Assembly (NCBI GenBank): GCA_034520965.1
Contig: JAXHMY010000001.1
Span: forward strand, 832,001 to 896,000
Direction: 5' to 3'
Source of the DNA: Spirochaetia bacterium
GTDB taxonomy: Bacteria; Spirochaetota; Spirochaetia; DSM-16054; Sediminispirochaetaceae
Length of the DNA: 64,000 bases
The position numbers were made by a program. This document shows, one piece after another, positions 9,001 through 36,000 of the stretch. Positions within the stretch are counted from its first letter, which is position 1. Each line of letters opens with the position of its first letter.

Positions 9001-12000
9001 AACAATCTCTCTTTGCCGCTCAGGTCCTCCGGAATACCGAGGAATTCCAGCACATAGGGATCTTTGATATGAGATAGTTTCCCGTCGGCTTCTTTGTCCA
9101 CTGTATTTTTACCCGATGATTGATTTGACAGGAGCCTCTCGAAGTAGCGGCTTTTAATATTTCGCTGCAAGGTTCGTACGCTCCAGCTTTCCCGTCGGGA
9201 CTCTGTCAGATAGAATTCCTTTGCCCTTTCATCATTAATCCGCATGATAAGTCTGATATGGGACCAGCTCAATTCTCTACACAGTGTGTAGAATTTTTGA
9301 TTTTCACGAAAAACCAGGTAGAACTGGCGAAAATTCTTCAAATTCGCAATAGAAAACCCCCTACCAATGGTATCGCCAAGGTACTTTGACAGTTCGGTAA
9401 TCAAATACTCCCCATAACCTGCACGACCTTTACCCTGCTGTTCCTGCTCTACAATTCTTTTGCCAATTTCCCAATAGGTCTCGACCATAACAGAGTTGAT
9501 CTTTCTATACGCGCTTTCCCGGGCAACAATCAGCAAGTGCTTAATATCCCGGTAGAACAGATCTTCACTTTCTTTTGTCACCAACTTCTCCCCGAATGAT
9601 TTTCTTTCACATAACATTATCAGCCCCTCATATTACCAAAAGCCCAATTGTGCTACACAGTGTGTAGCGTTTTCATAGAACTTATGTTAAACTATCGCAT
9701 TTTTTGCGACAGTTCGATTATCATACCAACTCCCGCACCTTCTTCAAAACCTCGGCGCTCTCCTTATCCAGCGCGGCTATCTCATTCAGTATCTCCTGCG
9801 GATCCCGCAATACAGTGTCGTCCTTTTTATTTGGGTTTTTAACCGATAGGTCGAAGGTCTCTTCGTTCACATCATTTATATCGAGGCTCCAGGAATTGTC
9901 CGAGTCGGCCTGTATCTTCTGCAGCTCTACAAACTCGGCAAGATCCTGCTCGTTCAGTGGATTGGTTTTGCCCAGGTTCCGTCCTGGGTTGAGCTGGTAG
10001 TACCATATCTTTTTGGTCGGTTCACCCTTTTCAAAAAAGAGTACCACAGTCTTCACCCCGGCTCCCTGGAACACGCCGCCGGGAAGATCAAGCACGGTAT
10101 GCAGATTACAGCTTTCCAGAAGGGTCTTGCGCAGGGATATGGAGGCGTTGTCGGTGTTGGAAAGGAATGTGTTTTTAATAACCACACCGGCTCTGCCGCC
10201 GGCTTTGAGTCTCTTGATGAAGTGCTGAAGAAAAAGAAAGGCTGTTTCACCTGTTTTTATAGGGAAATTCTGCTGAACCTCCTTGCGCTCTTTCCCACCG
10301 AACGGAGGATTTGCCAGAATTACATTGAAACGGTCTTTTTCCTGTATGTCGCTGATATTCTCCGAGAGGGTATTGGTGTGGATGATATTCGGCGCCTCGA
10401 TACCGTGGAGGATCATATTCATGGTACCGATAATATAGGCCAGTGATTTTTTCTCTTTGCCGTAAAAAGTCTTCTTTTGCAAGGTTTTCATGTTGCCGGT
10501 AGAAAGATTCTTTTCGCTTCTTAAATACTCAAAGGCTTCACAAAGAAAGCCCGCTGACCCGGCCGCACCGTCATAGATGGTTTCTCCGATTTCCGGCTTC
10601 ACCACTTTAACAATGGTTCTTATAAGCGGCCGTGGAGTATAGTATTCTCCGCCGTTGCGGCCGGCGTTCCCCATGTTCTGAATCTTGCCCTCATACAGGT
10701 GGCTCATCTCATGCTTTTCTTTCTGGCTTCTGAATCGCAGTTCGTCAACCAGATTAATAATTTCCCGCAGGTTGTAACCGCTCTGTATCTTGTTTTTTAG
10801 CTCACTGAAAATCTCACCAATCTTGTATTCGATGGTGTCCGGATTATCTGCCTGGGTTTTGAAACTCCGTAAATAGGGAAAAAGTTTCTGGTCGACAAAA
10901 TCCCGCAGATCATCACCGGTCAAAGCCTTATGATGGTCAAGTTTCCCTTCTTTCGTTTTGGGGGCCGCCCATACATTCCATTTGTACTCGTCTGCAATGA
11001 TAGATGAATATGATTTTGATGAAAGCCTGGCCGCAGCTTCCTTGTCCTTCTCAAGGTCATCGAGGTATTTCAGAAAAAGAACCCAGGAGGTCTGTTCCAC
11101 ATAATCCAGCTCACTGGAACATCCGGCATCTTTCCAGAGGGTGTCGTCGATATTCTTAAAGGTCTGTTCAAACATATTCTTTACTCATTCCTTTCTTTTT
11201 TCTCTGCCATGGACTTGGTGCGGTATTGCCTTTAACTTCCCGCGAGTACCCGAAGTTGGCGACCGACGGGAACCAATTTGGGCGAAGGCCGAATGGCCGT
11301 AGTCAGATACTCGCTGTTATCTGCTGTGCCTATTTTTTCCATTCTGCATAATGATCTGTGTATGTATCTAAAACTTTACGAATCATTTGTTGATATGGAA
11401 TATGTGTTTCTTCCGAGATTCGTTTGAAGAAATCAATGCTTTTTTTTGAAAGTGAGATGGTTACCTTCTTTGTCTCTTCTTTTGGTATTAACAACTCTGG
11501 TGGGGGAGTACATTTTCAATCTCGTTAGCTTCTAACAATGCTTCTCGTATGTCTTCCGGTGCCTCTTCATATTTAAAATTTTTCTTCATACCGCTGTTTT
11601 CCTTCACGCCAATATCCGGCGCCAACCAATCTTATAGCATTCTTTCGTATTGTAAACCTTACAGTGACGATTCCAGATTCAATTTTCCCAATACAAAAGA
11701 ACCTATCTTCATCGATACTATGCTTTTTATCTTCTAAAATTATCCTTTTAGAATCTAAAAAAGCAAATTGTGCTTCTTCGAATGAGATATTGTGTTTCTC
11801 TTTGTTAAGTACATTCTTATTCTCATCCCATATAAAGGCTCATAGACATACACGACCTACTAACGACATTATATACAAGAAAATGGGCATTGCAGACAGA
11901 CGTCTGCGAGTACCCGGAGTTGGCGAATGCAGAATGTGCCGAAGGCCAAGGCCGAAGCTCGCCGCATATACGCCCTGTTATCGGAAGTTTGGACGATCAC

Positions 12001-33000: not shown

Positions 33001-36000
33001 CGAAGGCGTGACGGAGAGAGTGGAAACTGAGTTGTTTGGTGATTTCGGTGCGCGACAGTGCCCGGTCAAAAATCGCCTGGGCGGAACGGACGGACAGGTG
33101 TTTTGAGAGCTGCTGTCCGGGAAAAAGCCAGCTGTGAAGCATAAAGTTGTTCCGGTACTGGGTGTAGAGAGCCTGTAGGCTGCGCGGAAGGATGGTGTAG
33201 CGGTCCTTATTTCCCTTTGCTGCACGGATATGGAGGAGGCCGCGGTCGAAATCAAGGTCGCCGAGCTTAAGACGGACGACCTCGCTCACGCGCACACCTC
33301 CGGAGTAGGCGAGTGAGAGGAGAAAACGGTGTTTGATGTTGGAGAGGATATCGGGATACTTTCTGCTCATCCGGGGGACGGGAATTGAATCCGCCGGATT
33401 GGGATAGCGCTGCGGGTAGTTTATCCTGAAGAAATGGCGCAATGCGCTTACACAGTGCACCGCGCCGCTGCGAGAGAGCCCTATACTGTCGGCCAGGCTT
33501 TCTAGATAAAGAACTATTCGTTCCCGGGTAACCTGAGCGGGAGGGCAGGCGGTACGCTGGAAAAACCTCCGCACCTGGCTTTCATATACCTGCATTGTGC
33601 TTCTGCTGTAGCCGGCCAGCTGGAGCTCCCGCCACATGGCGGCAAGGCCCGGGGTCAAATCGGGTACTTCAGGGGCTTTAGGTGCTACCCTTTGGGTGGG
33701 GGGCGCTGCTTTTTCGGATTCGGGCAGGCTGAACAGCCCTGTGTGGTGCAGTTTTTTCAAAAGGTCGTCAAGGTTGGACTGGCTGTCGGATATGATCCAG
33801 TGTTCATTAGTGGGATCCCATTGCCGCCCGGGAATGCTTCGCAACAGCTTGACCACACCGGGATGATAAGGAGTCTTTATAATTAAGTGTCCCCTGTGGT
33901 CTCCTCGTATCGAGAGCTGCATGTTCCCACCTTTTTGTTTATTCCACTATAATCCCGGCTGTGAGTGGCGTCAAGCAGAAGGTCTAATGATTATACAGGC
34001 GAACTTTACAGGCTTAGTCATGTCCGCCGGGGACTGCCGCGATTGCCTCAATTTCTACCTGGTAGCCAAAATGAAGCTCCCGGGTTGGTACTACCGCTCT
34101 AGCCGGGCGGTGGCTGCCAAAGAACTGGGCATAGACCTCGTTGACTCTGTCCCACAGGGAGATATCTGCTATATACACGGTTGTTTTGAGGACATCCTGC
34201 TTCCTGCAGCCCGCTTCCGAGAGGATGGCTTCGAGATTTGCCAGCACCTGCCTGGTCTGGACTTCGATGCTTCCAACCTCCCCTACTCCCTTATTCGGGT
34301 CTACCGGGAGCTGCCCGGATACAAAAACCAGCCCCATATGCACAACTGCCTGGGCGTAGTGCCCCGCCGGTTTCGGCGCAGCCTGCGATTTAATTTCATC
34401 CATAAAAGACACCTCTCTATGATTATAATTATACTATGTCCGGGCAGGTGAAAGTAAGTACCCATCTGTGTAAAGGAGCAGCACCCCGGAAGCTCCGGCA
34501 AATACAACCATGAGGCTATCACTATCACCGCTAATATAAAAGAGATTACACACCGCCGCCCCTGCCCAGACTGAGCACCATGCTTCCATATGCAGGCAGG
34601 CTGAGCTCCAGGACACTGCCTTTCACTGGAACAAAGGTACCCGGCCGGAACATATCCTCTGCAGCTGAGCTGTGGGATTCAACTGATAGTGAAATTGTGG
34701 TCTGCTCGCCTAAAGAGCTGACAACCACTACAATCCGTTCTTCCTCCGTAACCCGTTCAAAGGCAATTATATGATGATCCAGATACAGGGGCCGATAGCT
34801 ACCACCGCATAGAGCCGTCGATCGGCGGCGCAGCTCCGCCAGTTCTGCAATAAAGGCACTCAACTCGGGCGCCGCATCCGCCGTTTCCCGGCGCCACAAC
34901 ACCTCGGTCCACGCCGGCCGCAGCGCCGCATCCGAATGCTCGCTCCGGCGCCCCTCTATTCCGAACTCACTTCCATAGTAGATAGAAGGAATCCCCGGAA
35001 TGGTAAACAGCAGCGCGTACAGCGGAAAAAGGTGCCGCGGATTATCCAGTTTCGACGCCACCCGGTTCACATCGTGATTATCCGCAAAGTTGTAGAGCAC
35101 CGGTTTGCAGTCGGCCCCGGGTCCACCGCCATTGTCGTTACACGCGCGGCCCCCGCTCCCGTTTGCCTGCCCGAAGTTCCGCTCCAGCGAGTGGGCCAGC
35201 TCGAAGTAGTTCCGATCATTGTGGGCCGACCACAGCGCCTTGTACGTCTCGTAATTCGTCAGGCTGTGCAGCCCCGTCTCAGCGGCAAAGCGGTCATACT
35301 CGCCGTGAATAATCTCGCCCAGCAGGAAAAAGCCCTTGCCCCGGGTAGTAAACTCCCGCAGCTCCCGCAAAAAATCCGGCGGGAGGGCATAGGCCACATC
35401 CAGTCGCAGTCCGTCGATTTCAAAGTCATCAATCATCTGCGCCACCGCCCCAAACAGGTGCTCACGCATCTCACGGTTGTCCAGATTCAGCTCCGGCAGC
35501 TCTTCGTGCCCCTCCCAAGCCCGATAGGTAAACCCGTCGCCGAAGCGGTTGTTCGCCGAAAAATCGACCGCCTTGAACCAGTCGCGGTACGGCGAGGCGG
35601 CACCCCGCTGCCGCAGGTCAAAAAAGGCAAAGTGATCGCGGCTGGTATGGTTAAACACCCCGTCCAGCACCACCCGCAGTCCATTCTCGTGCAGCCGCCG
35701 TACCACGCTGCGCAGGGTATCGTTGTTTCCTAGCCGCCGGTCGACATGATAATGATCCACCGTGTCGTAGCCGTGGGAAGTCGATTCGAACAGCGGACCC
35801 AGATACACCGCATCGCAGCCGAGCCGGCGAATATGCCCGGCGGCCTCAGCGACCGCATCCAGCCGCGGTTCGGCCGGCGAAGCAAAATCGTTCCGCTCCG
35901 GCGCCTCGCAAAACCCGAGGGTATAAATGTGATAAAAGATGCTATGCCGCCACCACTCGCAGCTTTTGCCGCCAGCTGGTTCAGTAATCTCCGTATCTGT

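Follow-up and report, generated by a model that had tools for sequence, protein, structure and literature searches.

All coordinates are positions within the window, the whole 64-kb stretch of DNA that was analysed; C1 denotes the contig holding the array described here and C3 the contig of the same genome that carries a canonical integron. The minus strand of the window carries a tyrosine recombinase gene, an attI-like region and 21 cassettes, as follows.

33946..33974, minus strand: promoter-like site (TTGACG, 17 nt, TATAGT) upstream of the recombinase gene, from a consensus scan only (3 found, 1.0 expected)
32849..33922, minus strand: tyrosine recombinase without I2, 357 aa, from Pfam and NCBIfam profiles and alignment
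33737..33922, minus strand: N-terminal HARP-like domain, residues 1-62, Pfam HARP below cut-off
32800..32848, minus strand: attI-like region, crossover G|TT at 32809, the GTT lying 40 bases past the stop codon
32217..32809, minus strand: cassette 1, DUF3795 protein; site 32214-32295
30859..32217, minus strand: cassette 2, serine hydrolase of the beta-lactamase family; site 30856-30942
30048..30859, minus strand: cassette 3, Gp49-like toxin and HTH antitoxin, 96.8% identical to cassette 12; site 30045-30132
29236..30048, minus strand: cassette 4, MazE-MazF; site 29233-29320
28520..29236, minus strand: cassette 5, DUF4160 and DUF2442; long site 28517-28645
28051..28520, minus strand: cassettes 6 and 7, from site and sequence comparison; cassette 6 is a 312-bp remnant similar to the end of cassette 1 (site 28205-28286), and in cassette 7 (157 bp, site 28048-28124) no gene was found
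25828..28051, minus strand: cassette 8, HicA and HicB-HTH, interrupted by an IS110 element (about 26355-27745); site 25825-25912
23360..25828, minus strand: cassette 9, IS-like insert (24108-25804, 9-bp target duplication), then HicA-HicB; site 23357-23444
22406..23360, minus strand: cassette 10, alpha/beta hydrolase; site 22403-22490
20353..22406, minus strand: cassette 11, probably fused cassettes, with CAAX protease, unknown 271-aa protein and DUF2442; long site 20350-20479
19543..20353, minus strand: cassette 12, Gp49-HTH, second copy of cassette 3; site 19540-19626
18120..19543, minus strand: cassette 13, SRPBCC-type protein, split DUF4160 and DUF2442; site 18117-18200
17103..18120, minus strand: cassette 14, methyltransferase; site 17100-17186
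15705..17103, minus strand: cassettes 15 and 16, HigB-HTH (site 16338-16424) and ParE-DUF6290 (site 15702-15783)
14154..15705, minus strand: cassette 17, unknown 83-aa protein, Fic protein and truncated Gp49-HTH; site 14151-14237
12665..14154, minus strand: cassettes 18 and 19, RHH-ParE (site 13450-13537) and MazE-like-PIN (site 12662-12746)
11233..12665, minus strand: cassettes 20 and 21, HigB-HTH (degenerate site 11898-11980) and BrnT with a CopG-like partner (last site 11233-11319)

Profile searches of the recombinase revealed the Pfam domains Phage_integrase and SAM_4. The catalytic residues R211, K236, H301, R304, H327 and Y336 are all present and were invariant in 37/37 aligned sequences. 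The insertion typical of IntI (about 35-41 residues, helix I2, near patch III) is absent, in agreement with the survey's finding: the catalytic Arg-to-His spacing is 90 here versus 131 in a patch-bearing IntI (earlier given as 94 and 135, with the identical difference of 41), and TIGR02249 scored 155 bits, below its cut-off of 265. The best NCBIfam score, 173 bits for NF040815, was also under its cut-off (220); all Xer profile cut-offs (NF040815, TIGR02224 and TIGR02225) were missed, and the protein does not classify as XerC, XerD or XerA. The top Foldseek match of the protein model was the Vibrio cholerae IntI structure 2a3v, as had been reported, with XerA (E 4e-12) matching about as well as IntI (E 9e-13). 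About 12 residues had been noted as missing from this copy, and the gap is real: 12 conserved residues, present in 36/36 homologues and forming the first helix of the catalytic domain, are lacking after residue 194 (near 33341). Among the contigs listed for read run X1, one ends at 33309 and the next restarts at 33458, flanking the region of the 36-bp deletion. To judge from the alignment, the recombinase copy in this window is probably damaged.

An N-terminal HARP-like domain had also been assigned to the recombinase. The similarity is seen (PF07443, E = 0.0024), but its 17.8 bits lie beneath the 25-bit Pfam cut-off. A match at E < 0.01 was obtained in 21/37 homologues. In fold comparisons the N-domain gave E 0.33 with the SMARCAL1 HARP domain and Z 5.4 (rmsd 2.3, 57 aligned) with the N-terminus of UvsW, the latter no higher than unrelated rows, and an ESM Atlas search with the N-domain returned unnamed clusters only. 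Phage enzymes of about 270 aa and some cellular ones lack the domain and nevertheless head arrays of the same site class, which rules it out as a required or defining trait. Given the function of HARP domains, it might be an optional accessory, perhaps bound to the junction of single- and double-stranded DNA.

The attI-like GTT claimed to follow the recombinase on the same strand was found at 32809, beside the recombinase gene and with a G|TT crossover; over 10 bases, this GTT region and the R'' end of cassette 1 are perfectly complementary. Between 11233 and 32295 lie 21 sites, each of 77-130 nt from AAC box to GTT box, five to seven of them degenerate. The survey had counted 16 (13 full, 2 split and 1 divergent); 13 were detected automatically, by our own detector (0-1 in 6 shuffles), but the total is 21. 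The cassettes stand in tandem, with a hairpin site closing each one, and the duplicated cassette is bounded by G|TT, as expected of a mobile unit. Toxin-antitoxin pairs occupy 11/21 cassettes; the array had been described as mostly of this kind. For a putative cassette promoter Pc there were consensus matches only, none of them between the recombinase gene and the attI-like site, and an Rfam search of 10000-35000 gave zero matches. The R'' flank complements the 5′ end of its own cassette at 88/126 bases (permutation mean 60.6, maximum 81 in 100,000), and the same match was seen in relatives (4.8/6 versus 2.2-2.5, over 55 cellular and 161 viral cassettes), as would be expected of a unit existing in circular form. 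By sequence, a cassette spans the stretch between two successive G|TT, with the hairpin at its 3′ end and an R'' flank complementary to its own 5′ end. An excised circle suggested by an X1 read joint from 24107 to 23356 was not counted, since the joint is explained equally well by an allele that lacks the IS and follows a similar site.

The C1 sites differ from canonical attC sites in the stem. An ungapped stem with at least 9/11 pairs was observed in 14/21 sites, and in 19/21 the ungapped fit was as good as or better than the fit with canonical bulges. An extrahelical base, of which attC has two or three near L'', was present in 0/12 detected C1 sites versus 15/15 C3 sites. The right arm was 4 bases longer in 17/21 C1 sites, departing from the 5-6 bases per arm of the attC spacer. 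All 17 detected C3 sites formed 3-by-3 loops with two left bulges, as had been described, and the two families gave no mutual BLAST match, again in line with the earlier account. As in attC, the bottom strand gave the more stable fold (20/21 sites) and the GTT was intact (20/21). Minimum-energy folds closed the R box in only 11/21 sites, and in most of these the bottom strand formed a G-T pair and extruded a pyrimidine-rich bulge of 4 bases next to the R box; the earlier term "bulge-free" therefore needs a qualifier. The C1 sites are 75-93% alike, with a single orphan copy on contig C9. Across the compared sites the pairing of the stem was conserved and its sequence was not. The genome has a canonical IntI, as stated before, which is frameshifted by one base in this assembly of C3.

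In other genomes the type of site tracked the type of enzyme, at 15/15 IntI loci and 9/9 patch-less loci, as it does within this genome. These counts, like the others across genomes, were made with our own detector and include related loci, and hence are not independent. In the Bacteroidota phylum, an extrahelical base stood at the canonical position in 136/140 sites beside patch-bearing IntI and in 0/49 sites adjoining patch-less enzymes; it was found in 3/220 viral and 8/59 spirochaete sites. The asymmetric loop, formerly taken to mark the class, is not a defining feature, as 133/140 of the IntI-adjoining sites have 3-4 extra right-arm bases. Nor is co-orientation of recombinase and array universal, since phage arrays and the loci L110 and L112 are divergent. 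Phage enzymes lacking both the HARP-like domain and co-orientation head arrays (34/50 loci), so that neither trait is required. What sets the class apart is that I2 and the extrahelical base are missing together.

The reported enrichment downstream of N-domain recombinases was borne out: the 271 kb downstream of them held 84 sites (1.5 in shuffles), the 371 kb upstream 13. Where at least 2 kb of downstream sequence was present, 23/33 N-domain loci had a site; 10/33 had none within 10 kb, and no sites were seen at many patch-less relatives without the N-domain. The first cassette matched the GTT adjoining the recombinase in 9/25 cellular and 17/44 viral loci, and in 0/24 controls. In genome G310, 16 sites were detected along with five tyrosine recombinases, all of them without the patch, and the enzyme is encoded not at the array head but 20 kb beyond the array on its downstream side; G315 has 7 sites and no match to the recombinase family. 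No IntI scored over the cut-off in G310 or G001-G004. Relatives of the recombinase were matched in 68/201 Bacteroidota-phylum and 42/301 same-class genomes. With IntI present in 67/201 of the former, the notion that integrons are nearly absent from Bacteroidota failed in this sample.

Judged by predicted sites and enzymes, numerous bacteria and phages appear to have the same system, and it also surrounds resistance genes in a pathogen of poultry. Section 11 of PMC13148043 describes a Riemerella resistance gene integrated independently of homology with 27 + 140 flanking bases; the predicted cassette, from G|TT to G, has 28 + 139, the total being 167 in both. On one Riemerella plasmid, sites of the class stand directly after tet(X) in three places and after blaOXA, lnu(I), estT, aadS and aph(3'), indicating that resistance surveillance may be overlooking a cassette system. 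Neither G310 nor G395 showed the relE-hthR-cdf target of PMC13148043 next to its cdf gene, and a Chryseobacterium site used as DNA query against plasmids matched only itself. Phage P12002L carries 7 sites of the class and methyltransferase cassettes. Six sites were tested with IntI1 in PMC9892861, and the single one of the present class was not recombined.

The locus is probably a sedentary integron of a second family, run by the I2-less tyrosine recombinase, which supports and strengthens the core of the earlier claim. The recombinase would capture cassettes at the GTT just past its own gene and excise or shuffle them between hairpin sites. Its substrate would be the folded bottom strand, as in integrons, with the R box presumably cut at AAC and the second binding site provided by the stem beyond the G-T pair and the 3-4 base pyrimidine-rich bulge. 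With no extrahelical base to dock, there would be no need for the I2 helix. It may be speculated that strand choice is governed by the bulge next to the cut, that this bulge also prevents a second exchange of strands, and that replication is left to resolve the junction. The toxin-antitoxin cassettes would hold the array in place.

The same cassettes and enzyme could instead act in double-stranded recombination at the GTT core by two strand exchanges, Xer/pdif-like, the hairpins being used otherwise or placing half-sites. The absence of I2, which blocks the second exchange in IntI according to an excerpt of PMC7790495, and the near-equal model matches to XerA and IntI fit this view, which we nonetheless regard as unlikely: the pairing of the stem is kept and not its sequence, the better fold belongs to the bottom strand as in attC (excerpt of PMC5027507), and the partner half-site, 50-190 nt from the R box, is joined to it by folding only. 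Moreover, the Riemerella cassette integrated following natural transformation (PMC13148043), in which the entering DNA is single-stranded. That the sites are an unusual attC cluster served in trans by the canonical IntI of C3, with the patch-less recombinase a bystander, is highly unlikely. This genome and many Bacteroidota-phylum genomes do have an IntI, IntI also works beside asymmetric sites, removal of the extrahelical bases from a site lowered its recombination by IntI1 50-fold without abolishing it (excerpt of PMC5027507), and 21 patch-less recombinases near attC sites were judged not to be IntI by Cury et al. (excerpt of PMC4889954). Against this stand the sorting of site type with enzyme type, the genomes without an IntI over cut-off, the attI-like site adjoining the patch-less gene and the phages carrying a patch-less enzyme at the array head. 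The likeness among C1 sites and the orphan copy on C9 would suit REP- or MITE-like repeats that spread between genes and are shuffled via homologous recombination. This we consider scarcely credible, as it leaves unexplained the match of R'' to its own cassette start rather than that of the next cassette, the attI-like site and the homology-independent integration (PMC13148043).

Counted against a second integron family were the 12-residue gap, the enzyme placement in G310, the lack of an enzyme match in G315 and the site-free N-domain loci. The proportion of R-box-closing folds, the left bulges of 8/59 spirochaete sites and, in the excerpt of PMC5027507, the tolerance of IntI1 were likewise counted.

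Among known systems, the I2-less integron proposed here resembles sedentary chromosomal integrons such as the Vibrio cholerae superintegron, sharing a tyrosine recombinase beside an attI-like GTT, G|TT cassette ends, the AAC/GTT R box, a 3′-end hairpin, a better-folding bottom strand and many toxin-antitoxin cassettes. It differs from them in the absence of I2 and of the L-box extrahelical base, in an enzyme gene on the cassette strand and in the optional HARP-like N-domain. In the Treponema denticola integron the integrase gene is also on the cassette strand, but the enzyme is a patch-bearing IntI, unlike the present recombinase. The patch-bearing Bacteroidota-phylum integrons (L305-L324) share the longer right arm and the boundary signature (5.7/6), but keep I2 and the extrahelical base and are mostly divergent from their arrays. 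XerC, XerD and XerA have SAM-like and catalytic domains and lack I2, whereas the present recombinase falls below all their cut-offs, groups with IntI and adjoins cassette arrays. CALINs, including phage CALINs, are likewise site clusters without IntI nearby (Cury 2016, PMC4889954; Qi 2023, PMC9892861); the present system has a recombinase, which fails the CALIN-defining IntI profile, and an attI-like site. No description of this system was found in a literature search, and excerpts of PMC11742308, PMC8459023 and PMC13616975 held nothing bearing on the enzyme.

The recombinase grouped with IntI, apart from XerC/XerD (SH-aLRT 100). A quick tree, with columns drawn from the profile of the patch-less family, suggested that IntI is nested within that family, as an earlier, weakly supported tree had, but a constraint keeping 40 patch-less rows together was not rejected (AU p = 0.43). 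It is conceivable, although we hold it doubtful, that the system without I2 and extrahelical base is the ancestral, still active integron, that IntI arose inside it by gaining I2 and the flipped-out base, with an intermediate stage of asymmetric loop plus base surviving in Bacteroidota-phylum integrons, and that it shuttles cassettes between bacteria and phages and is the hitherto unexplained route of tet(X), blaOXA, lnu and aph genes into Flavobacteriales.

According to excerpts of PMC7790495 and PMC4889954, I2 is regarded as necessary for cassette capture and software calls integrases by it. The flipped-out base of the sites, too, counts as essential. A widespread family without I2 and without its DNA partner would mean a second way of cassette recombination and would provide a living model of the origin of IntI. 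The present system also offers an explanation, open to test, for what has been named as an unsolved question: how Riemerella resistance genes integrate without homology.

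The window locus is an integron-type platform whose tyrosine recombinase lacks I2, the helix-bearing insertion (patch) typical of IntI. The survey's finding of an integron-like system apart from the canonical kind was a real observation, and its main reading was upheld. The features concerned are:

32849-33922, minus strand: tyrosine recombinase gene, 357 aa
32809, minus strand: attI-like site, a GTT 40 bases past the recombinase stop codon
contig C3 of the same genome, 79716-80995: canonical IntI, with its array at C3 39306-78205

All six catalytic residues are present in the recombinase, and the absence of I2 was confirmed by its catalytic Arg-to-His distance, 90 residues versus 131 in patch-bearing IntI. 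The protein scored below every cut-off of the NCBIfam profiles (integron integrase, 155 versus 265 bits required); its closest named homologue, from a Spirochaetaceae genome, showed 85% identity. Residues 1-62 matched Pfam HARP with a score under cut-off, and the match recurred at E < 0.01 in 21 of 37 homologues; against the UvsW N-terminus, the predicted fold of this N-domain gave Z 5.4, ranked among unrelated rows. The loss of about 12 residues noticed in the survey also proved correct: where its catalytic domain begins, the protein lacks 12 residues that 36 of 36 aligned homologues possess, and the predicted structure is unreliable at this gap. Contigs of relatives (sequencing runs X3 and X5) carry 28 additional bases at the same point, flanked on either side by a copy of an 8-base repeat, which suggests that slippage caused the deletion; the recombinase encoded here is probably damaged.

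BLAST and inspection revealed 21 attC-like sites, every one on the minus strand, from 32295 down to 11233; the array described previously is real, its count of 13 full, 2 split and 1 divergent sites being replaced by 21. A detector built for this analysis, set to accept loops of any kind and as many as two bulges, recovered 13 of them, compared with 0-1 in six shuffles. The right arm was longer by four bases in 17 of the 21 sites, and 14 had an ungapped stem with at least 9 of 11 pairs. In 19 sites the ungapped fit equalled or bettered the canonical-bulge fit, in agreement with the earlier description of stems without extrahelical bases, while all 17 detected C3 sites showed the opposite pattern (7 versus 11 pairs). 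The bottom strand was the more stable fold in 20 of 21 sites. Of the 21 minimum-energy folds, 11 closed the R box, and most of these showed a G-T pair together with a pyrimidine-rich bulge of 4 bases. Toxin-antitoxin pairs, said to make up most of the cassettes, were found by Pfam in 11 of 21. A type I restriction-modification cluster that includes YhcG and RhuM genes (3858-11175) lies immediately past the last site, on the array's strand. Five tandem 12-base repeats were noted in an intergenic stretch at 6182-6259. An IS-like element (24108-25804) has imperfect terminal inverted repeats of 17 bp and a target duplication of 9 bp; the ORF that it carries, 335 aa long, had no Pfam match. Several single-base differences between an IS110 copy (26355-27745) and the sample contigs suggest indel errors in the assembly, which may also explain other split genes of the array. 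An orphan decayed site of this family was observed at C9 45707-45794.

If cassettes circularise, the bases ahead of the R'' box should complement the cassette's own 5' end. In the window array, 88 of 126 positions matched the own 5' end versus 52 of 126 for the start of the next cassette (permutation mean 60.6, maximum 81 in 100,000). The R'' flank of cassette 1 pairs perfectly over 10 bases with the GTT behind the recombinase, which places attI at 32809. A Gp49-HTH cassette is present twice (96.8% identity across 824 bases), the identity beginning one base ahead of one G/TT crossover and stopping 11 bases past the next. On sequence grounds, the cassettes are mobile units cut at G/TT. The boundary signature recurred among cassettes of the related loci (55 cellular, 161 viral; 4.8 of 6 versus 2.2-2.5), and 9 of 25 cellular and 17 of 44 viral loci had a GTT adjoining the enzyme that matched their first cassette, compared with 0 of 24 in the control. 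Cassette boundaries and the attI position are established by these matches.

Among 201 Bacteroidota-phylum genomes, IntI was above cut-off in 67 and a strong match to the patch-less family was found in 68. Control loci, picked for long contigs, comprised 20 of the 67 IntI genomes and 20 loci from the 68 (N-domain in 15 of these 20); perfect inverted repeats and wrongly oriented sites were excluded. Of 140 sites beside IntI, 136 had a single bulge at the canonical position of the left arm; of 49 sites next to the patch-less enzyme, none did; by locus the figures were 15 of 15 versus 0 of 9, although the genomes are related and the statistical strength is overstated. Site type therefore sorts with enzyme type. 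Further patch-less sets showed the bulge in 2 of 47, 3 of 220 (viral) and 8 of 59 (spirochaete) sites. Its absence is as structure predicts, since I2 is described as docking extrahelical bases (PMC7790495). The asymmetric loop put forward in the survey was ruled out as a class marker, because 133 of the 140 IntI-side sites are asymmetric too, with 3-4 additional right-arm bases.

Related loci (268: 79 GTDB, 80 metagenome, 80 viral, 20 from same-class genomes, 9 plasmid or Flavobacteriales) were classed on protein alone. Downstream of the 58 with the N-domain, 271 kb contained 84 sites (1.5 in shuffles), against 13 upstream in 371 kb; two loci of divergent layout, L110 and L112, account for 10 of these 13. 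Where at least 2 kb was available downstream, 23 of 33 loci had a site and 10 had none. Viral enzymes, of about 270 aa and without the N-domain, unexpectedly had sites upstream and on the opposite strand, 191 in 342 kb (1 in shuffles); of the 50 viral loci with 2 kb or more upstream, 34 had at least two sites. The system thus requires neither the HARP-like domain nor co-orientation, both earlier taken as its traits. The class is defined jointly by the absence of I2 and of extrahelical bases, and not by HARP-like domain, asymmetric loop or gene orientation. In the phage arrays (L203-L282), which diverge from the enzyme, 107 of 110 cassettes had their genes on the strand opposite to the top strand of the site, and several genes begin within a hairpin arm; of 53 cassettes in cellular downstream arrays, 43 had genes on the same strand as the site's top strand. 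In L090 (13150-17767), L341, L342 and L344, elements that are perfect inverted repeats, 142 nt and 96-97 nt long, are inserted beside sites and are possibly site-targeting MITEs; the L090 array also holds a group II intron.

In Riemerella anatipestifer, aph(3')-IVb has been reported to integrate in the absence of homologous flanks, every time taking along 27 bases upstream and 140 downstream, whether from genomic DNA or a PCR product (PMC13148043); the sections consulted remark on an attC-like fold, call the mechanism unexplained and name no enzyme. Plasmid NZ_CP073240.1 (L093), listed in the supplement of that paper, carries 11 sites of the patch-less class on one strand at 1996-37309 (0-1 in shuffles), most immediately behind resistance or toxin-antitoxin genes, and no integrase of the patch-less family. 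Its aph cassette, whose allele is not the donor's, has 28 + 139 = 167 flanking bases from G/TT to the next G, the published total offset by one base inside the shared GTT. In genome G310 the second contig is identical to this plasmid across a 7,721-base query; 16 sites were detected on the chromosome, and the genome encodes five tyrosine recombinases, all of them without the patch; an N-domain homologue among these (32% identity to P0001) lies 20 kb downstream of the array. Genome G315 has 7 sites and no match to the patch-less family. Of six phage sites assayed with IntI1 (PMC9892861), the sole failure was P12002L_attC1, in our analysis a 3-versus-6 site of the patch-less class without a bulge at the canonical position; the comparison concerns this single site.

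In a tree of 59 core domains IntI formed a single clade (SH-aLRT 100) within a patch-less group that excludes XerC/XerD (SH-aLRT 100). The nesting of IntI, which the survey had only in an unfinished tree with weak support, was seen here as well, but a constraint keeping the 40 patch-less rows together was not rejected (AU p = 0.43), so that IntI may be either sister to or nested in these enzymes. Four loci (L132, L133, L136, L155) whose patch-less enzymes split off close to the root of the IntI-containing group have 1-2 asymmetric sites upstream. In the C3 IntI the reading frame shifts by one base within a C-rich run near 80615, the Arg-to-His distance being 130.67 codons, i.e. 131 with the frameshift; sites of the C3 family also occur on C8 (three) and C2 (one).

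We infer that the patch-less enzyme acts on the adjoining sites. Its substrate would be the bottom-strand hairpin, cut at AAC, and I2 would be unnecessary because these sites have no extrahelical base. More speculatively, the bulge next to the cut might fix strand choice and prevent a second exchange, and the N-domain might bind the junction. The main rival, that the same enzyme recombines double-stranded DNA, is improbable. Service of the sites by IntI in trans is still less likely, although IntI1 is reported to withstand extrahelical-base loss, at a 50-fold cost (PMC5027507).

No account of a patch-less integron system was found in searches of the open literature, and an earlier report may exist in subscription papers. 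Cury et al. observed 21 recombinases without the patch in the vicinity of attC sites and judged them not to be IntI (PMC4889954), and an archaeal integron preprint and a review, as far as consulted, take the enzyme to be an I2-bearing IntI. The system described here works as an integron does, with an enzyme that lies outside IntI as defined.
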